The position numbers and the translations under genes were made by a program. Shown here in pieces: positions 560 to 55,334 of a stretch of DNA of 64,000 bases. Where the stretch lies: NCBI GenBank assembly GCA_023267275.1, contig JAHFNO010000005.1, positions 9,462 to 73,461 on the forward strand. The letters are read 5' to 3'. Source of the stretch: Candidatus Nomurabacteria bacterium. GTDB lineage: Bacteria; Patescibacteriota; Minisyncoccia; Phycocordibacterales; UBA9973. Below the pieces are notes generated by a model. It was not told where the DNA came from. It ran no database searches and was given only the letters and a program-made list of their open reading frames with translations. The stretch's first letter is position 1, and every line of letters begins with the position of its first letter.

Positions 560-700
560 ATCACTAAGTCTACTCGGGTTATTACACCCTGTGCGGACAA
601 AGTGTTCGCGACCCCACCTCGCCTGTCGCAGGGCGACATGGCTGTGGTCGGCACAAGTACAAAGAAAGACTGAAGCAGTTCAGTCTTTCTCGTCTTGTGC
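560..700. repeat. Structured element A plus nested hairpin, paralogous to element B at 845-980, next to tRNA-Arg
   Basis: About 75% identity to 845-935 with compensatory stem changes (cgggttattacaccc vs cggctgagtacagcc). Followed by the long nested palindrome ggcacaag...agactgaagcagttcagtct...cttgtgcc. Confidence 0.4.
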
Positions 701-769
701 CCTTGCTAGGAATCGAACCTAGAATAGCGGCTTAGAAGTCCGCAGTTATATCCATTTAACTACAAGGGC
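698..769 (-). tRNA. tRNA-Arg (anticodon TCT)
   Basis: Reverse complement folds as a cloverleaf: acceptor GCCCTTG/CAAGGGC, D-stem GTTA/TAAC, anticodon loop CTTCTAA (identical to E. coli argU), T-arm CTAGG-TTCGATT-CCTAG. CCA not encoded. One A:G mismatch at the base of the anticodon stem. Confidence 0.85.
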
Positions 770-844
770 AAAAAAATAAGGGGAACATGTGTAGCATACA
801 AAAATAGCTGGCGAAACGCCAGCTATTTTTGTATGGGCCACAAG

Positions 845-980
845 TCACTAAGTCTACTCGGCTGAGTACAGCCTGTGTGGACTAAGTGCTCTGCGACCCC
901 ACCTCGTGGTCGCAGAGCGACATCACTACGGTTCACAAAAACGAGGAAAACTGCATAAATGCAGTTTTCCTAAATTCACG
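845..980. repeat. Structured element B plus nested hairpin, paralog of A, next to tRNA-Val
   Basis: Shares cactaagtctactcgg...gcgaccccacctcg...gtcgcag.gcgacat with element A. Followed by cacaaaaacg-ggaaaactgcataaatgcagttttcc-cgtttttgtg; the T-run on the minus strand fits an intrinsic terminator for the minus-strand tRNA-Val. Confidence 0.4.
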
Positions 981-986
981 TTTTTG

Positions 987-1059
987 TGCGCGATGCAGGG
1001 CTCGAACCTGCGACCATCCGTGTGTAAAACGGGCGCTCTACCAACTGAGCTAATCGCGC
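987..1059 (-). tRNA. tRNA-Val (anticodon TAC)
   Basis: Reverse complement GCGCGATTAGCTCAGTTGGTAGAGCGCCCGTTTTACACACGGATGGTCGCAGGTTCGAGCCCTGCATCGCGCA. Acceptor GCGCGAT/ATCGCGC, D-arm GCTC..GAGC, anticodon loop TTTACAC, T-arm GCAGG-TTCGAGC-CCTGC. Confidence 0.85.
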
Positions 1060-1145
1060 GTTCATTATTTATACACTAATAGCCTTGCTATATCAAGTTA
1101 ATATTATACTGGTTAATATACCATATTATATGGTATATTCTACTT

Positions 1146-1817
1146 ATGAATTTGGCTGGAAAAGAAAAAGCAAGAATCTTGCGTAAACAGGGAAAGTCCA
1201 TTAATCAAATTGTCGCCGAGTCAGGGCTTTCAAAAGCAAGTGTAAGTGTTTGGGTTCGTGATATTGTTCTCACAAAATCACAAAAAAATAAAATTACTGA
1301 ACGAGGAAGGAGTATGGAATCCATTGAAAAAAGACGCTTAAGTCGTCTTGCAAACGAATATAAAAAAACTAGATCGGTGATGGATAGTGCGAAGAAAGAC
1401 ATTTCAAGCATTTCATTGCACGAGCTTAAAATTATCGGATCAATGCTGTACCTTGGTGAAGGAGGAAAAACAAGAAAAGGCATGGTTCGTTTGGCAAATA
1501 GCGACCCACTCATTATTCAAATGACAATGCGATTTTTTCGAGAAGTTTGTCTTGTCCCTGAAAATAAATTTTATGGACATATTCATACCTTTGATAATGC
1601 TGATGTTGAAAAAACTGAAAAGTATTGGTCAAAGATAACAAAAATTCCTCGAAAGCAATTTTATAAAACGTATGTAAAGCAAAGTACTGCGAGCTTGCAT
1701 AAGCGTAAAACATTGCCATACGGAACTTGCGAGATAGGTGTTTGTGACACAAAACTTTTCCTTACGATTATGGGCTGGATTGAAAAAATAAAAGAGTTAA
1801 CAACAAATGTTCAATAA
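1146..1817 (+). CDS. HTH DNA-binding protein, possibly homing-endonuclease-like (weak LAGLIDADG-like segment)
   Basis: N-terminal resolvase/Hin-type HTH (GKSINQIVAESGLSKASVSVWVRD). Internal IIGSMLYLGEGGK loosely resembles a LAGLIDADG motif. Lies beside the tRNA cluster; likely -10 tatggtatat upstream. Confidence 0.5.
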   Translation: MNLAGKEKARILRKQGKSINQIVAESGLSKASVSVWVRDIVLTKSQKNKITERGRSMESIEKRRLSRLANEYKKTRSVMDSAKKDISSISLHELKIIGSMLYLGEGGKTRKGMVRLANSDPLIIQMTMRFFREVCLVPENKFYGHIHTFDNADVEKTEKYWSKITKIPRKQFYKTYVKQSTASLHKRKTLPYGTCEIGVCDTKLFLTIMGWIEKIKELTTNVQ

Positions 1818-2082
1818 TGCAAAAGACCGCCAATGGCGGTCTTTTGCATTCATTAACTTTTTGCTTCTTCCTTGCGAGCATTCATTTCTTCATTATATTC
1901 TTCTTCGCTCATACTTGCATATGTGCCATCTGGCATTTTTTGCAATGAACGAGGGTTACCTTTTGCATCAACAAGCTCGTTGCTTCCTCCTTGTGGTGTT
2001 ATCGGGGAACGGTTCGGGTTAGTTTCCATGGTCTATTGACAAATTAGATAATAATTGCTATTATACACGCAAATAGACCTAT

Positions 2083-2583
2083 ATGTCAATAGACGAAAAT
2101 GTTATTGTTTTGCAAGGAGATTTTAACGCTCCTATGGTTAAGTTCTTTAAAGAAGCACTGCGAAGGCAACCCAAAAATGAGAGTATTGTATGCAGAATCG
2201 ATTCTCTTGGTGGTAATGGTCATTCGATGAATTTCATGAGTGGTCACATGGCAGTTATGACAAAATATCATAAAAGCCGTTTTATATCACAAATTGTTGT
2301 AGCCGAATCAGCAGCACTGATTTTTGCAGTCAATATGCATGAACGACATGTTACAAAATCAAGTGTTGGCTCCATACATTTGCCTGTGAGAAACATGAAT
2401 GTGATTGTAGGCGCACACGAGCCTAACCTCGAGATAAAAAACAAAAGTGTGATTGATCATTTTGTATCAAGAACGAAGCTTACCGCGAAGGAAGTAATTT
2501 CCCTTGAGGGAAAGTTTTTGTCTGCTGAAGAAATGCTTTATTATGGAATTGCAACTAAATTAGTTGAAAGTTTCCAAATCTAA
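2083..2583 (+). CDS. ClpP-like (S14 family) serine peptidase homolog, short and divergent
   Basis: IDSLGGN (ClpP INSPGG-like), Ser in VAESAALIF, His in SIHLPV, C-terminal LSAEEMLYYGIATKLVE like the ClpP tail. Only 166 aa. Confidence 0.55.
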   Translation: MSIDENVIVLQGDFNAPMVKFFKEALRRQPKNESIVCRIDSLGGNGHSMNFMSGHMAVMTKYHKSRFISQIVVAESAALIFAVNMHERHVTKSSVGSIHLPVRNMNVIVGAHEPNLEIKNKSVIDHFVSRTKLTAKEVISLEGKFLSAEEMLYYGIATKLVESFQI

Positions 2584-2655
2584 TTAACTCACCGTTTGCG
2601 CTATAAGCGTACGCGGTGTTTATTTTTTTATACACAATACGCTATACTCACCATA

Positions 2656-3495
2656 ATGATTAATATTCCCATTCTCTACGAAGACGACAATTGTCTTTTT
2701 ATAAATAAGCCGGCGGGGCTTTCTGTGCATGCAGATGGAAAGTCGGATCAATATACTCTTGCCGACTGGATTTTGGAAAAATACCCAACGCTTCTTGCGG
2801 TGGGTGAGCCAATTAAAATGCAGGTACGTGGAGAAGAAATCAGTATTCCAAAACCAGGCATTGTGCATCGTCTCGACAAAGATACTTCCGGCGTCATGCT
2901 TCTTGCAAAAACACATGAGGCGTACGAATTTTTTAAAAAACAATTTCAAGCTCACGAGATTGCAAAAATATACCACTGTTTCGTGTATGGATGGATCAAG
3001 GAAGACCAACAAACAATAGATAGTCCAATCGGACGCGATGCGGGAAATATTCGTCGTTGGGTCGTGGGCAATCTCGCGCGCGGAATGATGCGTGATGCAG
3101 TGACGCACATTCAGGTGCTCAAACGGTTTGGCGCTCCGATGCAGGGGAGCAAGCGAGTTGTTGTAGCCGAGGCTCCTATCGGCGGGAGTACTGAAAAAGG
3201 TACATATTCTTTTGTAGAAGCTCGTCCTCGAACTGGTCGTACACACCAGATTCGTGTGCATTTGCGTTCGATAAACCACCCAATCGTAAGTGACTCACTC
3301 TATGCTCAAAAGCGCGAACCAGCCCTCGGATTTACTCGCCAAGCGCTCCATGCGCGAGAGCTTCGCCTCGCATTACCAAACGGCGAAACAAAGACAGTCG
3401 TTGCTCCATACCCTGAAGATTTCAAAAGAGCACTAGAACAAGAGAACATTGGATCACTAGAACATAAAAACAATAAACAAGAAAACAAAGGATAA
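2656..3495 (+). CDS. RluA-family pseudouridine synthase
   Basis: HRLDKDTSGVMLLAKT catalytic motif; family-typical PAGL.VH and ARP.TGRTHQIRVH segments. Internal Met at MINIPILYEDD taken as start; the listed ORF begins at 2596. Confidence 0.85.
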   Translation: MINIPILYEDDNCLFINKPAGLSVHADGKSDQYTLADWILEKYPTLLAVGEPIKMQVRGEEISIPKPGIVHRLDKDTSGVMLLAKTHEAYEFFKKQFQAHEIAKIYHCFVYGWIKEDQQTIDSPIGRDAGNIRRWVVGNLARGMMRDAVTHIQVLKRFGAPMQGSKRVVVAEAPIGGSTEKGTYSFVEARPRTGRTHQIRVHLRSINHPIVSDSLYAQKREPALGFTRQALHARELRLALPNGETKTVVAPYPEDFKRALEQENIGSLEHKNNKQENKG

Positions 3496-3649
3496 AAGCA
3501 TGATCGTATGTCTTTGTTTTTGGACTTATTGTTATGGTGATTTTTGTTCTTGTGTTTTTATGTCTTCTATGGTAATGTACCTCAGTATTTATGGAATTGC
3601 GGATTCGAGCTTTCTATAACCTATAACCTAACCCCTAGAACCTATTTAT

Positions 3650-4057
3650 ATGGCATTAACCCTTACACCAGTAAAAAAAGAAGATCGCGCAGCAATTGAT
3701 TTCGCATCAGGCGATACTGTGCGCGTCTGGGTGAAGATTCCTGAAAAAGGAAAGTTTCGCCTCCAGGCATTTGAAGGTCTCGTTCTCGCTCGCAAACACG
3801 GTGCTGAAATCGGTGCAACATTTACTGTCCGCAAGATTGCCAGTGGTGTGGGAGTAGAACGTATTTTCCCATTGTTTTCACCAATGATTGATTCTATTGA
3901 AGTCATCAAAAAATCAGGAGCACGCCGAAGCAAGCTCTATTACGTTCGCGAAAAAGCAGTTCGTGATATCCGTAAGAAAATGAAAAGTGTTCGCGTGATT
4001 GCAGATGCAACTCCAGACGAAGTAGAAGAAGTCGCAGAAGAAAAAGTAGAAGCATAA
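3650..4057 (+). CDS. rplS: 50S ribosomal protein L19
   Basis: [10 protein letters not shown]...RLQAFEGLV...[27 protein letters not shown]...RRSKLYYVR matches L19 throughout. Confidence 0.9.
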
Positions 4058-4143
4058 TACAAAACAAAATCCCTCGCTCGAGGGATTTTGTTTTGAGAAT
4101 AATTGGTAGACGCTATACCCTAGAGGTATGGTATAATCTACAC

Positions 4144-4818
4144 ATGGGGAAGAGAGGACCAAAGCCAAAACGAATTATAAGCGAGAAATGGAATGCCAAT
4201 TTGGCGTATGCAATTGGTTTAATTGCCACAGATGGTTGCTTGTCAAAGGATAATCTCTTGATTGATTTAACCTCCAAAGATAGAGAGCAGTTATTAAATT
4301 TTTCCCAATGCCTTGGAATAAAATTTACGATAGGCAGTAAGTTGAATGGTCATGGAGGTAAAAATTTAAGAATTCAATTTAAAAACAGAATTTTTTACGA
4401 TTTTCTTTTGTCTATTGGTTTAACTCCAAAAAAATCACTAACTATGGGCAAATTGGCAATACCAAAAAAATACTTTTTTGATTTTTTGAGAGGATGTTTT
4501 GATGGGGATGGTAGTTTCTACTCATATTGGGATCCACGTTGGCGTTCCAGTCACATGTTTTACATAGAGTTTGTCTCTGCGAGTTTAGATCATTTGTTGT
4601 GGCTTCAAGAAGAAATACAAAAAGAAGTTGAAGTTAAGGGGCATATCACTGGGAGAAAAAAGAAAGCATTTTTTCAGTTAAAATACGCAAAGAAAGAAGC
4701 ACTGGCAATTATTAAAAAAATGTACTATAATCGTCGAGTCATTTGCCTTTCTCGAAAGAAGATAAAAATTGAGAAAGCGCTTGTGGTAGAGAAGAAGCAA
4801 CAGAAAAAGTATATATAG
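4144..4818 (+). CDS. LAGLIDADG homing endonuclease, two motifs
   Basis: LAYAIGLIATDGCLS and FLRGCFDGDGSF are canonical LAGLIDADG motifs 1 and 2. A tatggtataat -10 precedes the ATG at 4144. Sits directly upstream of tRNA-Leu. Confidence 0.85.
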   Translation: MGKRGPKPKRIISEKWNANLAYAIGLIATDGCLSKDNLLIDLTSKDREQLLNFSQCLGIKFTIGSKLNGHGGKNLRIQFKNRIFYDFLLSIGLTPKKSLTMGKLAIPKKYFFDFLRGCFDGDGSFYSYWDPRWRSSHMFYIEFVSASLDHLLWLQEEIQKEVEVKGHITGRKKKAFFQLKYAKKEALAIIKKMYYNRRVICLSRKKIKIEKALVVEKKQQKKYI

Positions 4819-4900
4819 GCGCGAGTGGCGTAATTGGTAAACGCGCCATCTTGAGGTGGTGGTGCCGCAAGGCGTGGAGGTTCAAGTCCTCTCTCGCGCA
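4819..4900 (+). tRNA. tRNA-Leu (anticodon GAG), class II with long variable arm
   Basis: GCGCGAG/CTCGCGC acceptor, D-stem GCGT/ACGC, anticodon arm CCATC-TTGAGGT-GGTGG, variable arm TGCCGCAAGGCGT, T-arm GGAGG-TTCAAGT-CCTCT. CCA not encoded. Confidence 0.9.
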
Positions 4901-4912
4901 CAAAAAACAAAT

Positions 4913-4946
4913 GAGGCGAACCCATGTGGTTCGCCGATTTTGTTTT
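4913..4946 (+). terminator. Intrinsic terminator after tRNA-Leu
   Basis: aggcgaacc-catgtgg-ttcgcc followed by gattttgtttt. Confidence 0.6.
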
Positions 4947-5184
4947 GTAGTGAGGGAGAGGGCTTGAAAGTCGCAGGTGCGAAGCCGGTCTGAAAGACCG
5001 TTACCGAGGCGGGGTCGAGAAATTTTGATTGTAATCAAGCAGAATATTCGTGATCAAGTTCTCTCTCACAGACAGAAAAAGACCCTTACATTGTAAAGGT
5101 ATTTTTCTATATAACTTTTAGGTTTGAATCTGTTGTGTTTCTTGCAGACTCATTCTTATGAGTATTTTTGCCTAGACAACAAGA

Positions 5185-6051
5185 TTGTGCATACTGTATA
5201 CTTTTTTCATGAGCCTAGAATGGTCTAAAAGTCCCGCCCGAAATGAGGCCGTTGATATCCAAAAGCAAGCCAAGAAAACCAGAGAAGAAATTTATTACGA
5301 CAATGAGCAAGTCCGGAGCGAATCTTTTATTGAAAATCACGATGATAGTGATAATTTTGAATGGCAGAAGGATGGAGATATCTCAAGGGATCAAACGGAG
5401 CGTTTTGTAACAAATGCTGAAAACATAACAGAAAAATCAATTATTGAAAAAGCCCTCCAAGCCTTGATCAAACAGAAAGAGGAACGTCAACGCATTATAG
5501 AAAAATACCCAGAAGCGTATAAGGAATTTCCTCATTATCATACTATTTCTTCGGAAATCTCAAGATTAAGTAATGCGATTAACGCTTTACAAAGAGAAAG
5601 AAGCGAGGTTACAGCTATCGAGAAAGTGCTTAATGGTAAAGAATCATGGTGGGTTGATGACTCAACAGAAAAATATGTTAAAGAAAAATTTCATGAAAAT
5701 GAGCTTTGGCAAGTCGCATTAAAGAAGGCTCGTAGTAGAGACGAGTGGATCGAGCGTATTTCCTCTGGTCGTATTAGTGGAGTATTTGAGAAAATTCTAA
5801 TGAAGGTCGTAGCAAAACAAATCTTGAAACCAAGATACGATGAGTTAGTTGAAAAAATGGAAGATTACAATGAGAAAATAATTACTTTAGAAGAAGAAAA
5901 GAAAAAATATTTAGTACGAATGAAAGCCCTAGAAGACTTTCTGTATAGTTCGGAATGGGGTGAGTTCTCTAAATTGGAGGATCTTGAGAAAGAAATAAAC
6001 AAGAATATAAGAATTGTTAAAACAATTTCCCAGCGCCATACCTTTAATTAA
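5185..6051 (+). CDS. Hypothetical coiled-coil protein, upstream partner of the PARP-like gene
   Basis: Charged, heptad-rich sequence with no recognisable domain. 23-bp gap to the next gene on the same strand. Start may be the internal Met at MSLEWSK. Confidence 0.55.
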   Translation: MCILYTFFMSLEWSKSPARNEAVDIQKQAKKTREEIYYDNEQVRSESFIENHDDSDNFEWQKDGDISRDQTERFVTNAENITEKSIIEKALQALIKQKEERQRIIEKYPEAYKEFPHYHTISSEISRLSNAINALQRERSEVTAIEKVLNGKESWWVDDSTEKYVKEKFHENELWQVALKKARSRDEWIERISSGRISGVFEKILMKVVAKQILKPRYDELVEKMEDYNEKIITLEEEKKKYLVRMKALEDFLYSSEWGEFSKLEDLEKEINKNIRIVKTISQRHTFN

Positions 6052-6074
6052 TAGATAAGTATTATACTGACTTT

Positions 6075-6665
6075 ATGAGTACTGAGGGATTCCCAACATT
6101 TTCTGCGATGCCATCCTCTTCCGAGGAAGAGTCCAATTTTCTTGAAAAGAATATGGCAAGTTTGCAAAAGATTTTTGATATCAATCCTGAGCTTGCTGAA
6201 ATTGGTTCCTTGGATCAATATGCTGCCTATGTCGAGAAAATTTTTCCGAATAGTTTAGTAAAAAATATTGTTTGGCATGGAAGCAAGAAACATTTCAATG
6301 AATTCAAAAGAAAGATATTTAATTTTTTTGGATTAAAACTAAGTCATGGTTTATATTTTGGTGAAAAATATGAACACTCAGAAGTTTTTGCTGGAGAGAA
6401 AGGGAAACTTTTCCCTGCAAAAATTAGTATCGAAAGACCCAATAAGCCAATTATGAAAGTTACAGGTATACCTTTCAATACAAATAAAGGAAATGGTTAT
6501 ATTGGTAAAGATTTTATTGATCGAAATGTAGGGCTTGTTGATGAATATGTGGTATTTGACCCATATCAAATACATATACTTGGCGATAGTAAAGATGCTA
6601 GGGCCTTTAAAGAGTGGACTCTCGGTAATAAAGAGAAATCGTCCTTATTTGAATCCCCTCAGTGA
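6075..6665 (+). CDS. Minimal PARP-like (H-Y-E class) ADP-ribosyltransferase catalytic domain
   Basis: IVWHGSKKHF (PARP1 LLWHGSR), SHGLYFGE (PARP1 GKGIYFAD), VDEYVVFDPYQI (PARP1 YNEYIVYDIAQV, catalytic Glu). Confidence 0.6.
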   Translation: MSTEGFPTFSAMPSSSEEESNFLEKNMASLQKIFDINPELAEIGSLDQYAAYVEKIFPNSLVKNIVWHGSKKHFNEFKRKIFNFFGLKLSHGLYFGEKYEHSEVFAGEKGKLFPAKISIERPNKPIMKVTGIPFNTNKGNGYIGKDFIDRNVGLVDEYVVFDPYQIHILGDSKDARAFKEWTLGNKEKSSLFESPQ

Positions 6666-6717
6666 TTACTGAAAGATTTTTTTCTCTATTCCCATCCAAA
6701 AATACGCAAGGTATACT

Positions 6718-7158
6718 ATGTGTATGAAAAGAACAATCATAACAATTATTGTGCTCGCGGTTACTGTGTTTGTGATGTATCGTGTTTTTTTAAATACTAA
6801 AAATAATGCAACGCCAATTGCGCCGGTTGTTCCTGTATCGCAAACCGAGCAAGCAACAACAGTTCCCGCACAAACTCCTTCGGTAAAAACAGTACAGATT
6901 GAAATAAAAAATTTTGCATTTGCTCCAAAGTCACAAACTATTCAAGTTGGCACTACGGTAACGTGGGTCAATCGCGATAGCGCTCCGCATACGATCGTGT
7001 CTGACACTGGCAACGTTTTGCATTCACCAATGATTGCAAGCGGGGAAACATTTAGTCATACATTTACCGCTACCGACCTTGCAAGCAGTTCAACCACTCT
7101 CAACTATCACTGCAGTATTCATCCAATGATGAAAGGAACTTTGAATTTGATTCAGTAG
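6718..7158 (+). CDS. Membrane-anchored cupredoxin (plastocyanin/amicyanin-like blue copper protein)
   Basis: N-terminal TM helix; type-1 Cu ligands present: His in SAPHT and C-x2-H-x2-M in [11 protein letters not shown]. Confidence 0.75.
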
Positions 7159-7168
7159 TAATTACACT

Positions 7169-7525
7169 ATGAACGAACTCACTCCAGAAGAAAAGCGAGT
7201 CATTATCGACAAGGGAACAGAAGCTCCGTTTACCGGAGAGTATGTAAACAACAAGGCAACAGGCGTATATGTGTGTCGCCAGTGTGGTGCGCCGTTGTAT
7301 AATTCAAAAGACAAATTTGAATCCAATTGTGGCTGGCCAAGTTTTGATGATGAAATTCCTGGAGCGATTCATAAAAGTCTCGATGCAGATGGTATGCGAA
7401 CAGAAATTACTTGCGCAAAATGCGGAGCACACCTCGGTCATGTATTTGTTGGTGAACATTTTACCGATAAAAATATTCGTCACTGTGTGAATTCTATTTC
7501 AATGCGGTTTGTTCCAGGAAAATAA
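7169..7525 (+). CDS. msrB: Peptide-methionine (R)-S-oxide reductase MsrB
   Basis: [43 protein letters not shown]: full MsrB/SelR signature including the Zn-binding CxxC pairs. Confidence 0.9.
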
Positions 7526-7537
7526 GTATTTTGACAA

Positions 7538-7559
7538 GTATACCCCCGAGGGGGTATAC
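7538..7559. promoter_or_regulatory. CsoR-type operator palindrome overlapping a sigma70-like promoter
   Basis: Perfect palindrome GTATACCCCC-GA-GGGGGTATAC, matching the GC-rich TACCC..GGGTA CsoR operator architecture. Sits between TTGACA (7531-7536) and a TATACT -10, just upstream of csoR. Confidence 0.6.
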
Positions 7560-7567
7560 TTTTTTAT

Positions 7568-7831
7568 ATGCATACCGACAAAACAAAACTCATTCGTCGA
7601 CTCAAGATCATTGAAGGGCAAGTGCGTGGACTCCAAGAGCTCATCGAAAAAGATACCTATTGTATTGATGTTATTACGCAAACCTCGGCAATCAAGCAAG
7701 GACTTTCAAACGTTGAAGATCTATTGCTCGAAGGACACCTTGGACATTGTTTGGTAAATCAAATCAAAAAAGGGCAGACGGAGAAGGCTACAAAAGAAAT
7801 TTTAAAAGTCTATGGTCTAAAAAGGAAGTAG
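7568..7831 (+). CDS. csoR: CsoR/RcnR-family copper-sensing repressor
   Basis: RLKIIEGQVRGLQELIEKDTYCIDVITQ...LLLEGHLGHC carries the conserved Cys/His/Cys metal ligands of CsoR. Upstream of copA. Confidence 0.85.
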   Translation: MHTDKTKLIRRLKIIEGQVRGLQELIEKDTYCIDVITQTSAIKQGLSNVEDLLLEGHLGHCLVNQIKKGQTEKATKEILKVYGLKRK

Positions 7832-7864
7832 AAAGCTCAAAGCCTAAAGCTGAAAGTAAAATTT

Positions 7865-10159
7865 ATGCAAAATACAAATACATTTAAAGTTCGCGGGATG
7901 CATTGTGCCTCATGTGCTGCGACTATTGAAAAAACATTTAAAAAAACTGACGGTGTTTCTTTGGCAGAGGCAAATTATGGCACCGAGTCCGTCAAAGTAG
8001 ATTTTGATGCATCAAAAACTTCTCCCGAAGCACTGTCTCAAAAAATCCAACCATTCGGATATGAGCTCATTATTCCAACCGCAGAAGAAATGCATATGTC
8101 GCAGAGTGAGCACGCGACGCATCTGGGACTCAATCAATCAAAGACAGAAAAATTGCAGGAACTTACCAGTTTGAAAATAAAAGTACTCACCGCTATTCCA
8201 CTCGCGATTGTGAGTCTCGTTTTCATGACTTGGGACATTCTCGCAGGATATGTACTCGTTCCCCAAATGAGTACAATGGTAAAAGAAATTTTTCAAATTC
8301 TTCTTCCGCTTTTTGCTACATACATGCTGTTCTACGTAGGGAAGCCATATCTTCTGGGCTTGTACCGATTTTTCCGCTATGGCAATGCAAACATGGATAC
8401 ACTGGTCGGGCTTGGTACTGGAGTGGCGTTTGTATATAGTCTCGCAACCATTTTCTTTCGCAGTGCGCTCGCTCGATACATAAATGTGGATGCAACATAT
8501 TTTGACATCACGATCATCGTCATTACATTTATTACGCTCGGAAAATATCTTGAGACTCGTTCAAAATTGAAAACTGGCGATGCAATTGAAAAACTCCTCA
8601 ACCTTTCTGCGAAGACAGCACTTGTTGCGCGTGATGGTACAGAAATGGAAATTCCAACGAGTGAGGTTGTGGTCGGCGATGTGCTTGTAGTAAAGCCGTC
8701 GGGAAAAATTCCTGTAGATGGCGTGCTTGTCGACGGTCATTCGTATGTTGATGAATCGATGATTACTGGCGAGCCAATGCCTCGCGAAAAAAATACGGGA
8801 GATTCTGTTGTTGCTGGCACAATAAATACGAGTGGTACATTTACGTTTCGCGCAACAAAAGTTGGGTCCGAAACAATGCTCGCACATATCATCAAGATGG
8901 TGGAAGATGCGCAGGGGAGCCGTGCTCCTATTCAGGCACTTGCCGACAAAATTTCTGCAGTGTTTGTGCCCGTCGTACTTGTGCTCGCGTTCCTTACGCT
9001 TGGATTGTGGATTGCTATTGGCACATCGCATCTTGGTTTTTCAAAAGCACTCGCCGATGGACTCACTTCATTTGTCGGTATTCTCGTGATTGCTTGTCCG
9101 TGTGCACTCGGTCTTGCAACACCGACGGCTATCATCGTTGGCGTCGGCAAAGGTGCAAAGGAGGGTATTCTCATCAAAGATGCGGCAACGCTGGAAAAAT
9201 TGCACACGGTGAATGTGGTTGTCTTGGACAAGACTGGTACGGTGACTCATGGCAAACCAGAACTGAGTACACTCAATAATGTTTCGAGCGAGAGTGATGA
9301 AAGAATTATACAATTGCTTGCCACACTCGAATCTCGATCGGAGCATCCGATTGCACGAGCGATTCTTACGCATGCGAAGGAAAAAAATATTTCGGTTCTC
9401 TCAATGAACAATTTTGATGCATTGAAAGGGAAAGGGGTGGGTGCTGAAATTGATGGTGTGCATTATTTTGCCGGCAGTGCTCGACTCGTCGAAGAATTCA
9501 ATATCAATTTTGATACACACTCGTTTGCCTCTCAATTGAGTGAAGGTAAGACACCGGTATTTCTTACAACAAAATCTGCAGTTCTTGCTGTAGTGTTTGT
9601 CTCTGATGCCATAAAGTCTGGAGTACAAGATGCAGTTACGCAATTACACAAGCTTGGTATTCGCGTCGTAATGCTTACCGGCGACACACAAAAAACTGCC
9701 GAATATATTGCACGCTCTGCCGGAATCGATGAGGTTGTGGCCGAAGTTTTGCCGGAAGACAAACTCGCAACGATTGTTGATTTGCAGAAAAAAGGCAATA
9801 CAGTGGCGATGGTAGGAGATGGCGTCAACGATGCACCGGCGCTCGCGCAAGCTGATGTGGGTATTGCGATGGCGACGGGTACTGATGTTGCTATCGAAAG
9901 TGCCGGCATTACTTTGCTTCACGGAGATATTTCAAAACTCGTAAAAGCTATTCGGCTTTCAAAACTCACGATGCGTGGCATCAAACAAAATTTGTTTTGG
10001 GCGTTTGTATATAATATAGTTGGCATTCCACTCGCAGCCGGATTGTTCTATCCGTTGTTTGGTTGGTTGCTCTCTCCGATATTTGCTGGACTTGCGATGG
10101 GACTCTCTAGTGTTTCCGTTGTCGGGAATTCACTGCGATTAAAAACTAAGAAACTCTAA
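7865..10159 (+). CDS. copA: Copper-translocating P1B-type ATPase
   Basis: N-terminal [36 protein letters not shown], eight predicted TM segments. Confidence 0.95.
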
Positions 10160-10220
10160 GGGAACACTTACGTCGATGTAATTCGACGCAAGGGAACACT
10201 TATGCAAAGCTAAAAATTGT

Positions 10221-10844
10221 ATGGAACAGAAAAAAACACAAAAAACATTTTTACTTGTCGTTGTTTGTATCATCGTCGTAGTACTCGTTGTGTTTCTTGG
10301 AAAAACGAATAGCACACCACAAGCTCCGGTATCAGAAAATACAACACTCGGTATACAGGTGACGGCAGCGCCATGGATTGCGGAAATAGCGCATTTGAAA
10401 GAGCGACTCGCGTCTATTGGATTGCCAGCTCTTCCGGAAGAGGGAACTACGCTCCATATACATCAACATCTCGATATTTTTGTGCACGGAAAACCAGTTG
10501 CCGTATCGCCTGGAATTGGAATCAATGAGCAAGATCGTTTTATTGCACCGATTCATACACACGATGCATCAAATGTTATTCACGTTGAATCACCAACAGT
10601 ACAAGATTTTACTCTCGGACAGTTCTTCGACATTTGGGGTGTGCAATTTACAGCGAATGCGATTGGCGGATATACGAGTGATGCAACAAATACGCTCACT
10701 GTGTTTGTAAATGGAAAAGAATTTGCTGGTGACCCAAGAACACTTATTCTTGCTCCGCACCAAGAAATTGTCGTGACATTTGGAACAAAAGCTGAAATTC
10801 CAAATCCTGTGCCATCGTCGTATACATTTTCAGATGGAGAATAA
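10221..10844 (+). CDS. Membrane-anchored His-rich hypothetical protein within the copper cluster
   Basis: Signal-anchor helix, then HIHQHLDIFVHG...IHTHDASNVIHVESP histidine clusters. No known domain. Confidence 0.5.
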   Translation: MEQKKTQKTFLLVVVCIIVVVLVVFLGKTNSTPQAPVSENTTLGIQVTAAPWIAEIAHLKERLASIGLPALPEEGTTLHIHQHLDIFVHGKPVAVSPGIGINEQDRFIAPIHTHDASNVIHVESPTVQDFTLGQFFDIWGVQFTANAIGGYTSDATNTLTVFVNGKEFAGDPRTLILAPHQEIVVTFGTKAEIPNPVPSSYTFSDGE

Positions 10845-10853
10845 TATATTTAT

Positions 10854-11882
10854 ATGAACACACAAAAAACATATACATTTCATGTGCACGGCATGCATTG
10901 CAACTCATGTGTACTCCTTACGGAGAGTGAACTCGCCGAGCTTCCATACATCACGAGTGCAAAGAGTAGTTTACAGAATCGCACGGTTGTTGTTGAAGGA
11001 GACTTTGGTGAGCAAACTGCCGAAGAAATCGCACAAACACTCACGAATGTATTGCAGCCACACGGATATACACTTTCGATTGAAGCAGAACAAAAAGAAA
11101 AAAATCTTTCTGAATTTATGGTCGCAGTTCCGATCGCGATTGGTTTTGCCGCACTCTTTTTGTTGCTCCAAAAATCAGGTATTGTGCACCTGAGTGGATT
11201 TGGAGAGGTGACGTACGGCACGGCATTTGTCATTGGTATCATCGCTTCGCTTTCTTCGTGTATGGCAGTGGTGGGAGGACTCGTACTTTCAATGTCGGCA
11301 ACATTCGCAAAAGAAAGTAGTACTGCTCGTCCACAGATTCTTTTCCATATTGGACGAATCGTTTCGTTTTTTGTACTTGGTGGAGTCGTTGGTCTTTTGG
11401 GAAAAGCATTTGCACTCTCGGCAACAGTGACATTTATACTTGGGCTCATTGTTGGTTTGGTAATGCTTATTCTCGGAATCAATTTGCTCGATGTTTTTCA
11501 TTGGTCAAAACGTTTGCAACCAGGGATGCCAAAAATTCTTTCCAAGCATGCGTTTAACGTTTCAAAAATAAATGGAGCTGTGACACCACTCCTTGTTGGG
11601 GTCGCCACCTTTTTCCTGCCATGTGGATTTACACAATCGATGCAAATTTACACACTTTCAACGGGAAGTTTTTTGAAAGGAGGACTTACCATGCTTGCAT
11701 TCGCACTAGGTACATTTCCTGTGCTCGCCGCACTTTCATTTGGTTCATCGAATATTGCAAAAAGTGCAAAGTCGGGCATATTTTTTAAATCCGCAGGACT
11801 CGTTGTGATTCTTTTTGCAGTATTTAATATTATCAATGCACTAGCAGTGGCAGGAATTATTCCACCAGTATTTAATTTTTAA
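10854..11882 (+). CDS. HMA-domain fused to a DsbD/CcdA/TauE-like transmembrane domain
   Basis: N-terminal GMHCNSC heavy-metal-associated motif; polytopic membrane domain with paired cysteines (SSCMAV, FLPCGF). Confidence 0.65.
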   Translation: MNTQKTYTFHVHGMHCNSCVLLTESELAELPYITSAKSSLQNRTVVVEGDFGEQTAEEIAQTLTNVLQPHGYTLSIEAEQKEKNLSEFMVAVPIAIGFAALFLLLQKSGIVHLSGFGEVTYGTAFVIGIIASLSSCMAVVGGLVLSMSATFAKESSTARPQILFHIGRIVSFFVLGGVVGLLGKAFALSATVTFILGLIVGLVMLILGINLLDVFHWSKRLQPGMPKILSKHAFNVSKINGAVTPLLVGVATFFLPCGFTQSMQIYTLSTGSFLKGGLTMLAFALGTFPVLAALSFGSSNIAKSAKSGIFFKSAGLVVILFAVFNIINALAVAGIIPPVFNF

Positions 11883-11900
11883 TATACGCTACACAAATGG

Positions 11901-11990
11901 CTCATTTCTTCGTTGCCTCACTCGTTTGTTCCCGCGGAGTAGGATTACTACACCTTAGTCACAAGCCTCATTCGCGCCTCGAACTGCATC
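11901..11990 (+). repeat. Copy 1 of a ~90-nt dispersed intergenic element
   Basis: Core ...ctcgtttgttcccgcggagtaggattactacaccttagtcacaagcctcattcgcgcctcgaactgcat, embedded between the 18-bp inverted repeat atatacgctacacaaatgg / ccatttgtgtagcgtata. Copies also at 34412-34503 (inverted) and 42075-42170. Confidence 0.65.
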
Positions 11991-12016
11991 CATTTGTGTA
12001 GCGTATAATAACTTTT

Positions 12017-12406
12017 ATGAAAAAATCAGTATTCATTATTATTTGTAGTCTCGCCGGGATACTCGTACTGTCACTCTTTTTTGTTTCGCCGAAAAAAGTA
12101 CCGGAGATGAGTGTCGATGGTTCAAATGTGTATATGGAAAATGGCGTTCAGATTGTGGCAATTAAAGCTGGTGGGGGATATTCTCCGCAAGTGAGTGTGG
12201 CGAAGGCAGGTATTCCGACAAAAATCCGGTTTGCCACGAGTGGTTCATTTGATTGTTCTTCGTCGGTTCGGATTCCAAGTCTTCATATCTCTCAAATTCT
12301 TCCTCAAAAAGGGAAAGCTGATATCGATATTGGTACACCAAGTGCCGGACCACTCCAGGGAATGTGTGGAATGGGAATGTATCCGTTTAGTGTCACGTTT
12401 CAGTAA
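12017..12406 (+). CDS. Secreted Cys/Met-rich protein, possible copper-binding
   Basis: Signal peptide; C-terminal GMCGMGMY and FDCSSS. Next to the copper genes. No confident domain assignment. Confidence 0.4.
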   Translation: MKKSVFIIICSLAGILVLSLFFVSPKKVPEMSVDGSNVYMENGVQIVAIKAGGGYSPQVSVAKAGIPTKIRFATSGSFDCSSSVRIPSLHISQILPQKGKADIDIGTPSAGPLQGMCGMGMYPFSVTFQ

Positions 12407-12414
12407 CGGCTGGT

Positions 12415-12771
12415 TTGCAGTATACTATTCAAATGCAAAAATTACAGAACAAGCGATGTATTCCGTGTGAGCAAAAGAAGGGGACAGCGCCTCTTTCAAA
12501 AGAAGCTATCGATCAGTTATTTGTTGAGCTTACCGGATGGGAAATCGCAAAGAATTACAAATCAATCGTGAAAGATTTGGTTTTTACAAATTTTGATAAG
12601 GCGATGGATTTTGTAAATGTAGTTGCCGACCTCGCCGAATTTGAAGGACACCACCCCGATATTGATATTCGTTACAATAAAGTAAAGCTTGTACTCTCGA
12701 CACATTCCATAGGTGGTCTTTCAGAAAATGATTTTATTCTTGCAGCAAAAATCGACCGAATTTTTTTGTAA
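12415..12771 (+). CDS. Pterin-4a-carbinolamine dehydratase (PCD/DCoH)
   Basis: LTGWEI...FTNFDKAMDFVNVVADLAEFEGHHPDIDIRYNKVKLVLSTHSIGGLSENDFILAAKID matches the PCD family, including the HHPD motif. Confidence 0.8.
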   Translation: MQYTIQMQKLQNKRCIPCEQKKGTAPLSKEAIDQLFVELTGWEIAKNYKSIVKDLVFTNFDKAMDFVNVVADLAEFEGHHPDIDIRYNKVKLVLSTHSIGGLSENDFILAAKIDRIFL

Positions 12772-12782
12772 AAAATTCGGTC

Positions 12783-12807
12783 GATCCCAAACTTGATTTG
12801 GGATCCA
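12783..12807. repeat. REP-like hairpin, member of the GGATC..GATCC family
   Basis: ggatcccaaa-cttga-tttgggatcc after the PCD stop. Related to the hairpins at 25.8, 45.5, 47.4, 54.5 and 61.3 kb. Confidence 0.5.
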
Positions 12808-12833
12808 GGTTAATAATAATTGAATTATAATTT

Positions 12834-13280
12834 ATGAACTCATTTCTTCTTCATATTTTTATCGCGTGTATTGGTGTGGTTGGTTTTTCGATTGCCACAT
12901 ATATATCCCTCTGTAAAAAGAAAAAAAAGCCGCTCGTGTGTCCACTCCGTACCAGTTGCAATTTTGTGACCACGAGTGACTATTCAAAATTTCTCGGTAT
13001 TCATGTTGAGTATCTCGGTATGGCGTATTACGCATTTGTCACTCTACTCCATTTACTTCTCGCATTCTCACCATACTACGTGAGTGATATGGTCTTTTGG
13101 TTTGGATTGCTTGTCTCAATCGGAGCCTTTCTTTTTTCAGTGTATCTCACAAGTGTGCAGGCGTTTGTCCTCAAACAATGGTGTACCTGGTGTATTTTTT
13201 CAGCAACCCTGTGTGTGATTATCGTCCTTGCCACATATTATTCTTGGGTGACTATTGTTCCACTACCGCTTACTTTATAA
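12834..13280 (+). CDS. VKOR-family thiol oxidoreductase
   Basis: Four or five TM helices with CTWC (CxxC) and a loop Cys pair (CPLRTSC). Size and topology fit the VKOR family. Confidence 0.7.
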   Translation: MNSFLLHIFIACIGVVGFSIATYISLCKKKKKPLVCPLRTSCNFVTTSDYSKFLGIHVEYLGMAYYAFVTLLHLLLAFSPYYVSDMVFWFGLLVSIGAFLFSVYLTSVQAFVLKQWCTWCIFSATLCVIIVLATYYSWVTIVPLPLTL

Positions 13281-13431
13281 GAGAAAAATTCGCTTTTTCA
13301 GCGTTTTTTTGATATAACATATGGGCTTTCTTGTCCACACAGGAAGCAAGGGTATTGGTGTCTAGATGATTTCTGAATTAATCATAAACCATCTTGTTTA
13401 CATAGGTCTTTTTCTTTGATAAAATTGAAGC

Positions 13432-13926
13432 ATGCCAATAGTTGCATGCAAAATTTGTTCAAAAGAATTTTATGCAAAACCATTCTTTTTACGGAATGGG
13501 CATGCAAAGTATTGCTCTGATAAATGTATGCGTCTTGCAAGCAGGACTGGCAAAGTTGTAAATTGTCATGCCTGTCAAAAAGAAGTATATAAAACGAAGA
13601 AGGCATTGCGTATTTCAAAAAGCAAGACATATTTTTGTACAAAGTCTTGCCAAACAAAATGGCGCAATTCAGTTTTTGTTGGTTCGAAGCATGCAAATTG
13701 GAAAGATGGAAGTGCGTCGTATCGAAGTGTAATGCTAAAAAATAAAATCCCTCAAGTCTGTCGTTTATGCATGACTGCGGATTTACGAGTATTGGCAGTA
13801 CATCATATTGATCGAAATAGAAAAAACAGCTCGTTGTCAAACTTGGCTTGGCTGTGCCACAATTGTCATTTCTTGTTACATCATTACAAAGATGTAGAAA
13901 AGAAATTTATGGAGGCATTAGTGTAG
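13432..13926 (+). CDS. HNH homing endonuclease with N-terminal zinc-finger repeats
   Basis: Multiple CxxC pairs; HHIDRNRKNSSLSNLAWLCHNCH is an H-N-H motif. Confidence 0.8.
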   Translation: MPIVACKICSKEFYAKPFFLRNGHAKYCSDKCMRLASRTGKVVNCHACQKEVYKTKKALRISKSKTYFCTKSCQTKWRNSVFVGSKHANWKDGSASYRSVMLKNKIPQVCRLCMTADLRVLAVHHIDRNRKNSSLSNLAWLCHNCHFLLHHYKDVEKKFMEALV

Positions 13927-14014
13927 GAGTAACACAACAGTTTGTGGAACTGTTATCGTGGGTGCAAAGCCCACATGCCTCCCCAAAAGTATAAATATAT
14001 ACATAATTAATTAT

Positions 14015-14425
14015 ATGAAAATCTTATTTGTTTGCCGTGGAAATGTTGGAAGGAGTCAGATGGCCGAAGCACTCTTTAAGAAATACATTAAAGGTGATTA
14101 TTCAATTTCATCTGCGGGAACAAAGTTAAGTGGGGAAGAATGCCCTCTTGTTGATTTACCTTTAGCTGAGAATGTGATTGATGTCATCAAAGAAGAAGGT
14201 ATTGATGTCTCTCAAAATTATAGAAATCAACTGACGGAAGAAATATTCAACAAGGCGGACAAGGTAGTTCTTGTTGTGGATGATGCTGACCCATTACCTG
14301 ATTATGTAATTGGAAGGGATAAAGTCATTCGTTGGTCTGTTCCAGACCCAAAAGGGACTACTCTTGAAAGACATCGCGAGATTTTGAATCAAATCAAAAA
14401 ATTGATATTATTTACCACTTTCTAA
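14015..14425 (+). CDS. Low-molecular-weight protein-tyrosine phosphatase / ArsC-type arsenate reductase family
   Basis: ILFVCRGNVGRSQMAEAL is the CX5R P-loop of the LMW-PTP/ArsC family. Start taken at MKILFVC. Confidence 0.8.
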   Translation: MKILFVCRGNVGRSQMAEALFKKYIKGDYSISSAGTKLSGEECPLVDLPLAENVIDVIKEEGIDVSQNYRNQLTEEIFNKADKVVLVVDDADPLPDYVIGRDKVIRWSVPDPKGTTLERHREILNQIKKLILFTTF

Positions 14426-14458
14426 TATTAATGCAAGAATTCTGATATATTTCTTAGT

Positions 14459-14758
14459 ATGGAATCATCAAAAATAGAATCATACGTTGCGTTTCCTATC
14501 CAAGAAACGGCCAAGGCGCTTGCTGCTCAGGTCGGTTTGGAAAGCGCTCCAAATCTTAAATCCGTTATTGAGGAAATCAGTGATGCGTTTGCTGTAGCAA
14601 TTGCGACAACAGACAAGCAAAAAATACAAGTATCTTTACGGATACTGAAAATGCACGAAGATTATCTCGGAGAAAAATATCGCGATACGCCCGATGATGT
14701 GCGTTATATCAAAACCGTCAATAAGGCAATTGAGTATCTCGAATCACAGATCCAATAG
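14459..14758 (+). CDS. Hypothetical protein
   Basis: 99-aa ORF with coding-like composition and no recognisable domain. Confidence 0.45.
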   Translation: MESSKIESYVAFPIQETAKALAAQVGLESAPNLKSVIEEISDAFAVAIATTDKQKIQVSLRILKMHEDYLGEKYRDTPDDVRYIKTVNKAIEYLESQIQ

Positions 14759-14812
14759 TATTTTATATACGTGGGTGTATAATTGATTCATTACAAATTA
14801 AATCTCCCTTTT

Positions 14813-25064: not shown

Positions 25065-25240
25065 AAAAAAATAGTTTGTGATTGGGGAAGTGAGGTTTGA
25101 ATCCTCCACAGTGCCGCTACGGTGATACCAAGACTCTCTTGGGAAGTCCGAATGCCAATCATAAATAGTGTGTCCCGAGCAGGAAATGTAGCGCGTGTTA
25201 AGCGCTCGTCTCTACAAAGTCCCTCGGAAGGGATTTTTTT
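25065..25240 (+). ncRNA. Cobalamin riboswitch with intrinsic-terminator expression platform
   Basis: tGGGGAAGTGAGGTTTGAATCCTCC...ACGGTGATAC...GGGAAGTCCGAATGCCAATC parallels the T. tengcongensis AdoCbl aptamer (GUGGGAAAGUGACGUGAAAUUCGUCC...ACGGUUAUACUCCGAAUGCCACC). Ends in the tccct-cgga-aggga hairpin plus T7 at 25220-25240, ~80 bp upstream of the DUF4430 gene. Confidence 0.75.
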
Positions 25241-46946: not shown

Positions 46947-47369
46947 ATGAAAATCAAAGTTAAAAAATTGAAAGATGGTGCAAAATTGCCCAAGTATCAC
47001 ATGCCAGGGGATGTGGGTATGGATATGTATGCAATGGAGACCGTGACTATTCCACCGATGGGACACGTACGTTTGTGGCATGGCTTCGCACTTGAATTCG
47101 ATGCTGGTTTTGCGGCTATTGTGAAAGACAAATCAAGTATCTCGAAGGCAGGATTGCATACAATGGGAGGAGTTTTTGATGCCGGGTATCGAGGTGAATA
47201 CAATACACATCTCGTAAATCTGGGAAGCGAGCCATATACCGTAGAAGCTGGAGATAAGGTGGCTCAGCTTATTATCTACCCAGTCGTCATTGCAGATCTT
47301 GAAGAAACTGATACATTGAGTGAGTCGGAGCGAGGAGACAAAGGCTTCGGCTCGACAGGAAAGAAATAA
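46947..47369 (+). CDS. dut: dUTP diphosphatase
   Basis: GDVGMDMYA, GFALEF, GGVFDAGYRGE, ERGDKGFGSTG: the five dUTPase motifs. Confidence 0.9.
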   Translation: MKIKVKKLKDGAKLPKYHMPGDVGMDMYAMETVTIPPMGHVRLWHGFALEFDAGFAAIVKDKSSISKAGLHTMGGVFDAGYRGEYNTHLVNLGSEPYTVEAGDKVAQLIIYPVVIADLEETDTLSESERGDKGFGSTGKK

Positions 47370-47372
47370 CAT

Positions 47373-47445
47373 TTTGTGTCATCCTGAACTTGTTTCAGGA
47401 TCTAGTATCAAACTCGTGGATGCTGAAATAAATTCAGCATGACAC
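47373..47445. repeat. REP-like hairpin pair
   Basis: gtgtcatcctgaa-cttgt-ttcaggatc and gatgctgaa-ataaa-ttcagcatgacacaatac. Confidence 0.55.
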
Positions 47446-47467
47446 AATACGTAATACAAAAATATAA

Positions 47468-49183: not shown

Positions 49184-49679
49184 CCTAGCAAGGTTACTCT
49201 TGGAGTATAAATTTAGCAAAATCACCTACTGGGTAGCCATCTTGTAGGTTTTTGCTGTTTGGTTTTAGGTTTTAGGAAATACAAAAAACCGGCCTCCATG
49301 GAAGACCGGTTAATAAAATGAAAGGCAAATCACGCACAATGCCGCGGCGCTAATGTGCGATTGGTGATTTACACTTCCGCGCGTACGATACGATGTTTTT
49401 TGCGATAAAAGCAGCCGTTCGCTCCGCCTTTAAGGAATTAAAGCATCTTGCTTAACATATTAATCACTCTCGTTTGAAAGTCAATCCTTGATAAATAAAA
49501 AATGGGTAAATAAAAAACCGGCTCTTTTGGAACCGGTAAGATGCATAAGGTGGGAATAAAAAAGAAGAATTATGGAAACTTAAAAAATGGTTGCTGAGAG
49601 CATCTTTGGTACAAGGATATTCCTTAATTATTCATCCGTCAAACGCTTTACATAAAATGATAATTTAGTATTATAAACG

Positions 49680-50065: not shown

Positions 50066-50261
50066 GAATTTTTGATAATTATTTTATAAAACAAAATAAA
50101 TATCGGAGTTGTTAATACGCAAGCAAGCAAAAATTTATTGTTACCACTTATGTTGAGTGTGTTAACAAAAGGTGCAAGCCATTTAATTTCAATAAATACA
50201 AGTAATAATAAACTGAGTCGCATAAAAATAAGTTTTCTTCACATTATCATAAATAAAGTAT

Positions 50262-53804: not shown

Positions 53805-53806
53805 CT

Positions 53807-54430: not shown

Positions 54431-54452
54431 TTTCTCTCCCTCTTTTTTGTGT

Positions 54453-54535: not shown

Positions 54536-54611
54536 GAGTTACTTAAGGGGTGGTGCATTTCCTAGAACCTAGAAACTAGAACCTTTCCCTCACTTCCTTT
54601 ATAATGGATAT

Positions 54612-55322: not shown

Positions 55323-55334
55323 ACAAAAAAACAT

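Follow-up and report, generated by a model that had tools for sequence, protein, structure and literature searches.

ART-PolyVal (PF18760) is a family of ADP-ribosyltransferases (ARTs) and the commonest protein-modifying domain of the polyvalent proteins of phages and conjugative elements (Iyer et al. 2017, PMC5512222). That study placed the family in the Tox-ART-HYD2 clade, as kin of PARPs, Gig2, and the diphtheria and cholix toxins, described its active site as H (strand 1), Y (strand 2), and D (strand 5), and predicted protein modification for it. The functional model for polyvalent-protein ARTs was provided by Alt, ModA, and ModB of phage T4, which early in infection modify proteins including host RNA polymerase, and the phage paradigm is that RNA polymerase or translation factors of the host are modified (Iyer et al. 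2017, PMC5512222). A large multidomain protein is where ART-PolyVal typically occurs, but the domain family does not require this setting. Here we describe a gene for a 196-aa protein of this family in a 64,000-nt stretch of contig JAHFNO010000005.1 (the whole stretch is hereafter referred to as the window), which is most likely the ordinary chromosome of a Candidate Phyla Radiation (CPR; Patescibacteria) bacterium. We read the gene as encoding a stand-alone ART-PolyVal ART with no conserved partner, and assign this reading a probability of about 65%.

A stand-alone member of the ART-PolyVal family

The ART gene starts with ATG, and a second open reading frame (ORF), with a TTG start and 288 codons for amino acids, lies upstream on the same strand at 5185-6051. 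An earlier note on this DNA, made from the sequence alone, had placed both ORFs where we found them. The gene pair was identical in three independent assemblies (an 86.7-kb NCBI contig, ENA ERZ27279942, and Logan SRR14366796), which rules out an assembly artefact.

6075..6665, + strand: stand-alone ART of the ART-PolyVal family, 196 aa (P0001)

The sole Pfam match of the 196-aa protein was ART-PolyVal (E=9e-6, 26.9 bits), limited to residues 65-125, i.e., to positions 8-66 of the 140 in the profile (the N-terminal half of the domain). Scans against NCBIfam, PADLOC (E<=1), and PHROGs gave no match, and PDB sequence searches at E<=10 with the single protein or the family profile retrieved nothing, PARPs included. 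A word-indexed homolog search returned two non-self relatives only. An exhaustive HMMER scan, with a profile built from the 196-aa protein and its two nearest relatives, recovered 2364 cluster representatives at E<=1e-3 and 1261 at E<=1e-10, with matches spanning the whole domain; many of them were domains within proteins of 2000-5800 aa, some with several copies. A second homolog search based on a 37-sequence alignment detected 485 proteins at E<=1e-10; of the 120 best homologs listed among them, almost all carried PF18760. Relatives P0007, P0009, P0010, P0011, and P0003, together with the proteins of loci L040, L042, and L046, scored 36.6-46.6 bits on PF18760, above the curated cut-off, and the profile of the 196-aa protein matched PF18760-passing relatives across the whole domain (E 1e-26 to 1e-61). 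Given the relatives above the Pfam cut-off and the 485-protein search, we consider the assignment to ART-PolyVal secure via transitive sequence homology, the protein's own score being marginal. The earlier note had raised an uncharacterised ADP-ribosylation system; the 196-aa ART is instead a fresh member of a family already described computationally (Iyer et al. 2017, PMC5512222).

Fold and NAD-binding site

The AlphaFold2 model of the 196-aa protein, based on a 68-sequence alignment, had a pLDDT of 88.8 and a pTM of 0.81. A Foldseek comparison, suggested in the earlier note, returned PARP catalytic domains as the nearest solved structures, the top four PDB matches being those of PARP4 and PARP2 (probability 0.92-0.99, E about 0.03, TM 0.3-0.37). 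Among viral models (BFVD), the top matches were phage proteins annotated as ART-PolyVal-like or PolyVal ADP-ribosyltransferase (E 1e-5 to 1e-3), mostly 900-1500 aa and some 167-225 aa long. Structure comparison of the model recovers an ART core fold, which a short N-terminal helical lead (residues 22-54) precedes.

The family profile was aligned by hhalign to the PARP1 ART domain (P=0.0019, with a PARP1 sequence entered by hand). The register paired H68 with H862, Y94 with Y896, S102 with S904, F105 with Y907, and E157 with E988 of PARP1, and was identical to that of the motif alignment in the earlier note, whose three motifs are present in the translation as IVWHGS (H68), GLYF (Y94), and VDEYVVFDPYQI (E157, codon 6543-6545). 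In the model, H68, Y94, and E157 fall within predicted strands 66-70, 93-96, and 153-160, respectively, and a helix (99-106) and a further strand (166-168) are also predicted.

6267..6284, + strand: IVWHGS, predicted strand 66-70 with the NAD-binding histidine H68 (codon 6276-6278) and G69; aligns to PARP1 LLWHGS
6348..6389, + strand: GLYFGEKYEHSEVF, strand and helix with Y94 (6354-6356), S102, and F105; PARP1 Y896, S904, and Y907 by hhalign
6537..6584, + strand: VDEYVVFDPYQIHILG, predicted strand 153-160 with the catalytic-position E157 (6543-6545), then QIHILG; aligns to PARP1 YNEYIVYDIAQV

Conservation was counted over 211 aligned family domains. H68 was conserved in 172 of 184 aligned domains; position 94 was Y in 105 domains and F in another 47, 152 in total, and F95 was found in 165. 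At position 105, the family consensus is Y and the 196-aa protein has F. The third catalytic position, 157, was E in 80 of 178 aligned domains, Q in 24, and other residues in the rest. Directly after it lies the best-conserved element of the family, (V)F(E)P(E)QIHILG, in which Q165 was kept in 171 of 178 aligned domains and in all 39 genomic copies. The 38 genomic small copies followed a similar pattern, with H kept in 36, Y or F in 37, and Q165 invariant, and with E (18), Q (9), or another residue (11) at the third position.

The NAD-site residues retained in the 196-aa protein are H68-G69-S70, Y94-F95, S102, F105, and E157, and this full canonical set makes an active enzyme the likelier state of the protein. 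The nicotinamide of a bound NAD+ would be held by H68 and G69 and stacked between Y94 and F105, and E157 would help transfer a single ADP-ribose onto a macromolecular acceptor; nothing in the protein was suggestive of polymer synthesis. The site of action is probably cytoplasmic, because no signal peptide or membrane segment was visible by eye. No helical regulatory subdomain, WGR domain, zinc finger, BRCT domain, or macro domain was detected in the 196-aa protein, and its earlier description as a bare catalytic module holds in that it consists of a single ART domain with an intact H-Y-E triad and no regulatory domains.

Relatives in phages and in CPR and DPANN genomes

The nearest solo relatives of the ART (P0015, 47% identity; P0199, 45%) are encoded on phage-like contigs, which contain many small ORFs along with genes for GIY-YIG and NUMOD homing endonucleases, an RNA ligase, a GH108 lysozyme, and aminoacyl-tRNA-synthetase-like proteins. 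A GNAT acetyltransferase gene adjoins the ART gene on most of these contigs, with small unannotated ORFs in its place on L011-L013; an association of ART with GNAT has been noted for polyvalent proteins (Iyer et al. 2017, PMC5512222). A 173-aa MmcB-like protein (faint Pfam match) precedes the closest solo ART relatives (L009 7469-8955, and equivalent positions in L010-L014). Another relative, P0011 (43% identity), has a cellular context beside cation ATPases and Fur.

A total of 231 relatives were found in IMG/VR. The loci of 80 of them were fetched, and in 70 the domain was part of an ORF that exceeded 1000 aa or ran off the locus; seven were at most 300 aa. Relatives are present in metagenomic viral contigs, and a tblastn search of 50,697 GenBank phage records (E<=1e-3) gave no match to a cultured phage. 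Among GTDB species representatives, 48 loci were recovered with a subfamily pattern, about 25 of them labelled CPR, 5 DPANN archaea, 6 unnamed bins, and 12 other bacteria or archaea; the pattern came from an alignment centered on a CPR protein, so the CPR enrichment is partly built in and the numbers are no census. The CPR and DPANN loci mostly had solo ORFs of 170-270 aa, and in all but two of the 12 loci from other organisms (Chitinophagaceae, Polynucleobacter, Rickettsiales, Fusobacteriaceae, etc.) the domain was inside proteins of 2000-4000 aa.

The solo genes occupy recurrent positions within lineages.

L017 3280-3825, L025 2976-3503, L028 5956-6588 (three CPR genomes): solo ART directly after rpoC
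L020 (5977-6699), L033, L037, L041, L047 (DPANN metagenome-assembled genomes, MAGs): solo ART follows RNase HI; four of the five ARTs are immediately followed by a class II aminoacyl-tRNA synthetase gene
L015, L052: solo ART near methionine aminopeptidase and alanine racemase genes
L063: solo ART among PPIase, GTPase, ABC-F, and MscL genes

Clustering of the neighbors of solo ART loci revealed no conserved neighbor, only lineage-local synteny with housekeeping genes, and the neighbors change from lineage to lineage. Across syntenic genomes, ART identity was 27-39%, compared with 60% for rpoC, 47-50% for the aminoacyl-tRNA synthetase, and 41-55% for rluD. Within the rpoC, RNase HI/synthetase, and alanine racemase groups, the ARTs were 32-39% identical, compared with 60% for rpoC, 47-50% for the synthetase, and 53% for alanine racemase. 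Fixed positions combined with such low identities indicate that the solo ART genes are long-term chromosomal residents that evolve quickly. Fast divergence at a kept position is a pattern typical of conflict-related genes, and would fit a conflict-type effector directed against phage, a host cell, or a competitor. No prior report of this CPR/DPANN solo-copy pattern turned up in the searchable literature, which likewise yielded nothing relevant on ARTs in Patescibacteria.

Two further features were seen among the CPR relatives. The N-termini of many CPR solo or oligo-domain ARTs are alike, with M-E-x-F-P-K-P or M-N-F-D-x-P-P (window 6075-6120, where the protein begins MSTEGFPTF; L046 5578-, L040 502-, L044 392-, L039 1538-, L029 3100-). 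A neighboring non-ART ORF (L029 1545-2105) begins in the same way, and the DPANN copies are without it; the motif is possibly a targeting or processing signal, or mere shared ancestry. In the longer CPR ART proteins (334-680 aa), the NPEL lead and the ART core are separated by an extra domain that had no Pfam match, with sequence like '...ISLYRIENKNI...' or '...ITLYRAEG...GTWFSPD...' (L050 68-1180, aa ~50-185; L049, L040, L042, L058; P0003, aa ~45-170). The ART profile matches part of this inserted domain weakly, and it may be a degenerate second ART-like domain.

The upstream gene is confined to this genome

The gene 23 bp upstream of the ART gene was called in public annotation (P0004) from ATG 5209, which gives a protein of 280 aa.

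5209..6051, + strand: charged all-helical ORFan, 280 aa (288 aa from TTG 5185), neighbor of the ART gene
5173..5202, + strand: promoter-like site TAGACA-18-TATACT, ending 7 nt before ATG 5209 (consensus scan; weak)

An ORF of 280-288 aa in a stretch of 36% GC is almost certainly a real gene. Its product is 38% charged, and a single-sequence AlphaFold2 model was all-helical at low confidence (pLDDT 62.9). Searches of Pfam, NCBIfam, PADLOC, and PHROG gave nothing better than E=0.03, in line with the earlier description of a coiled-coil protein with no recognisable domain. No terminator-like hairpin was found on the + strand between the two genes, and they may be co-transcribed; promoter-like sites in the region were no more numerous than in shuffled sequence.

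The earlier note had proposed that the two genes could form a module of the toxin/immunity or defense type, and had suggested checking whether homologs of the pair co-occur across genomes. A search of 5.8 billion proteins with the coiled-coil protein returned the self-match only. Six-frame ORFs of 146 other loci with ART relatives held nothing similar at E<0.05, and neither did the full sequences of 226 ART-family proteins, in which it might have been present as a fused region. Judged by these searches, the coiled-coil gene is a genome-specific ORFan without the status of a conserved ART partner, and the proposed pairing finds no counterpart in other genomes. PADLOC (E<=1) assigned neither protein to a defense or toxin-antitoxin family, and a known defense system was rejected as PADLOC, NCBIfam, and PHROGs were empty for both. 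Our preferred reading of the locus is a solo ART gene beside an unrelated accessory neighbor, and not a two-gene system.

Chromosomal setting

The window encodes SecE-NusG-L11, ArgRS, IleRS, RecO, ribonucleotide reductase, a type IV pilin-like protein, LAGLIDADG ORFs, and a probable diversity-generating retroelement, and its nearest syntenic genomes are Nomurabacteria and Saccharibacteria MAGs. Pfam annotation covered positions of about 1-38,000 and 47,300-59,200, which are occupied by housekeeping genes. No phage structural genes were found in these annotated parts, and a prophage context was rejected on that basis. They also contained no macro, PARG, or ARH genes, consistent with the earlier remark that none is adjacent to the ART gene.

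The order of genes around the ART is tRNA-Arg, tRNA-Val, an ORF with helix-turn-helix (HTH)/LAGLIDADG-like sequence, clpP-like, rluD, rplS, a LAGLIDADG ORF, tRNA-Leu(GAG), the coiled-coil gene, the ART gene, and a copper-resistance cluster, followed further on by tRNA-His(GTG). A conserved block of tRNA-Val, clpP-like, rluD, rplS, and tRNA-Leu(GAG) through to tRNA-His(GTG) is shared by the window (697-13985), L046 (2726-8007), and L050 (68-5501), and in each of the three the ART-PolyVal gene occupies a different slot.

4819..4901, + strand: tRNA-Leu(GAG), upstream edge of the variable segment with both genes (ARAGORN, Rfam)
4915-4935: terminator-like hairpin after tRNA-Leu(GAG)
Window: ART protein of 196 aa, after tRNA-Leu
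L046 (Nomurabacteria MAG): ART protein of 463 aa, between rplS and tRNA-Leu
L050 (labelled Saccharibacteria): ART protein of 370 aa, before rluD

The interval from tRNA-Leu to tRNA-His is about 9 kb in the window, compared with roughly 0.8-2.8 kb in L046 and L050. The GC content is 33.8% for the ART gene and 35.6% for the coiled-coil gene, with similarly low values for the LAGLIDADG ORFs; most other checked genes are at about 40-45%. The low GC of the ART/coiled-coil segment is consistent with accessory or acquired DNA. An integrated element might have left a downstream copy of the tRNA-Leu 3' end as a direct repeat, but a search of 4700-16000 yielded no convincing att-like repeat.

Recombinase genes were observed near several ART genes. 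Beyond the window, but on its contig, a Recombinase-domain (serine recombinase) gene is found about 7 kb upstream of the ART (L001 2035-2979), and three CPR loci have large serine-recombinase-like genes within 1-3 kb of the ART, namely L029 (0-1079), L042 (1-1588), and L046 (7954-9645); these could reflect mobility of the ART-bearing segment.

Other features of the window were recorded. The LAGLIDADG ORF at 4093-4818 ends one base before the tRNA-Leu start (4819), and the ORF at 1146-1817, with HTH and LAGLIDADG-like sequence, adjoins tRNA-Val; both are at 34-35% GC and look like free-standing homing-endonuclease-like genes abutting tRNA genes. Directly downstream of the ART gene, a copper/redox cluster (6718-13280) encodes a cupredoxin, MsrB, a CsoR-type repressor, a Cu-type P1B ATPase, an HMA-DsbD-like membrane protein, a second cupredoxin, a pterin-4a-carbinolamine dehydratase-like protein, and VKOR. 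A bAvd accessory variability determinant (- strand) beside an RVT_1 reverse transcriptase (+ strand) at ~57767-59309 probably represents the diversity-generating retroelement. An AdoCbl-II cobalamin riboswitch (25075-25165; 37.0 bits, Rfam gathering threshold 36.5) is located upstream of a DUF4430 gene and a gene for a 739-aa surface Ig-like protein.

Proposed function and alternative explanations

Several points weigh against a stand-alone, active ART-PolyVal enzyme in a CPR chromosome. The protein's own score on PF18760 is below the curated cut-off of 31.2 bits, and the family triad was described as H-Y-D (Iyer et al. 2017, PMC5512222), with E at the third position here. That position varies across the family (E in ~45% and Q in ~13% of aligned domains), and ~30% of the genomic small copies have a residue there that is neither acidic nor an amide; given this variability, some ART-PolyVal members may be inactive or work differently. 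The predicted superposition of H, Y, and E on PARP derives from the profile alignment and secondary structure, and no biochemical study of any ART-PolyVal member was found in the searchable literature. The probable CPR assignment draws on gene content and the identity of the syntenic genomes. Finally, this reading does not explain an active cytoplasmic ART with no visible neutralizer, and the coiled-coil protein could yet serve as a private antidote.

One alternative is a two-gene toxin/immunity or toxin-antitoxin module, in which the coiled-coil protein would neutralize a toxic ART until a trigger, e.g., phage infection, frees it. The genes are on the same strand, 23 bp apart with no intervening terminator-like hairpin, both have low GC and sit in a variable segment beside a tRNA, and no ADP-ribose-removing enzyme is nearby. 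We nevertheless regard such a module as unlikely, as the coiled-coil protein had no homolog anywhere, including beside the ART relatives in the 146 other loci, solo ART relatives adjoin unrelated housekeeping genes with no recurring small neighbor, and PADLOC was empty for both proteins. A protein of 280 aa is also large for a typical antitoxin. Adjacency and shared strand are all that supports a toxin/immunity relation specific to this genome. Of slightly lower probability is an inert or decaying remnant, i.e., a single domain left from a phage or conjugative-element polyvalent protein whose function was lost. The family is found mainly inside giant phage and mobile-element proteins, and the phage-like contigs of the nearest solo relatives (45-47% identity), the low GC, and the serine recombinase gene about 7 kb upstream would all agree with this. 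Yet the reading frame is unbroken and no NAD-site residue has been lost, the structure model is compact and of high confidence, and phage structural genes are absent from the annotated parts of the window. Similar solo genes also persist at the same positions across genomes in which rpoC or the aminoacyl-tRNA synthetase is only 47-60% identical, and retention by selection is therefore favored.

Two alternatives concern the chemistry. The domain could be an NAD+ glycohydrolase that destroys NAD+, e.g., as an abortive-infection effector, rather than modifying a target, and no sequence features discriminate between transferase and glycohydrolase chemistry. We judge this improbable, to about the same degree as the remnant, as the domain is structurally most similar to H-Y-E enzymes that modify proteins (PARPs, AcrF11, and diphtheria toxin) and protein modification was predicted for ART-PolyVal (Iyer et al. 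2017, PMC5512222). It is highly improbable that the protein is a true minimal bacterial PARP, a PARP-family member making poly(ADP-ribose). The H-Y-E triad is set in a PARP-like sequence context and PARPs are the top solved structures, and the earlier label "PARP-like" remains appropriate at the fold and clade level. It does not extend to the PARP family: there was no PF00644 match at E<=1, with PF18760 found instead, and no PDB sequence match with the single sequence or even the family profile, and PARP-family membership was rejected. TM-scores to PARPs were just 0.3-0.37, viral ART-PolyVal models fit better (E 1e-5 vs 0.025), and the helical regulatory subdomain is absent.

For the stand-alone ART-PolyVal enzyme, the positions of ART genes next to rpoC and rluD-rplS are suggestive of transcription or translation targets, by analogy with phage, although coincidence is possible. 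A broader and speculative proposal, to which we give a small chance, is that the short solo ART-PolyVal genes represent a domesticated effector that is kept vertically and evolves fast in ultra-small episymbionts, both CPR bacteria and DPANN archaea, repurposed by these host-attached cells from a host-modifier domain injected by phages, with the coiled-coil ORFan here as a private regulator or antidote. If so, components of the host cell or of phage would be ADP-ribosylated by the ART, or perhaps the transcription/translation machinery of the symbiont itself; this last option is suggested by the recurrence of solo ARTs beside rpoC, rluD-rplS, RNase H, and aminoacyl-tRNA synthetase genes.

One more predicted member of a family described in 2017 changes little in itself. 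However, a compact 196-aa soluble ART that retains its H-Y-E triad is well suited to experiments on what these very abundant phage domains modify. Among the recovered loci, solo copies are usual in CPR and DPANN chromosomes, and giant-protein copies in viruses and other bacteria, and the solo copies keep their places among housekeeping genes yet diverge fast, which hints at a recruited function; this pattern is of value as the host-interaction toolkit of CPR and DPANN organisms is largely unknown. The ART/coiled-coil 'system' should not be carried forward on present evidence.

Comparison with known systems

Eukaryotic PARP catalytic domains (PARP1, PARP2, PARP4, PARP15, and tankyrase) share no detectable sequence-family membership with the window ART, which differs from them in missing the helical regulatory subdomain, WGR domain, and zinc fingers, aligns structurally at TM 0.3-0.37, and gave no sign of chain elongation. 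The toxin-antitoxin systems DarT-DarG, ParT-ParS, RES-Xre, and MbcT-MbcA have a conserved cognate antitoxin gene, whereas none was found at the window locus, which also had no PADLOC match. Among small ARTs encoded by phages or mobile genetic elements, AcrF11 mono-ADP-ribosylates Cas8f and thereby blocks type I-F CRISPR. Alt, ModA, and ModB of phage T4 belong to the R-S-E clade, have no sequence homology to the window ART, and are virion-packaged or phage-expressed, whereas the window ART is chromosomal.

The closest described system is ART-PolyVal itself. Phages also hold short solo versions of it, hence solo status alone is not new. The window domain differs from typical ART-PolyVal in constituting a whole 196-aa chromosomal protein, rather than a module of a virion-packaged or conjugation-delivered giant protein, and in having E as the third residue where the family description has D. 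It is otherwise homologous to ART-PolyVal by sequence and structure, with the same core of H in strand 1, Y in strand 2, an acidic residue in the final catalytic strand, and a C-terminal motif of the QIHILG type.

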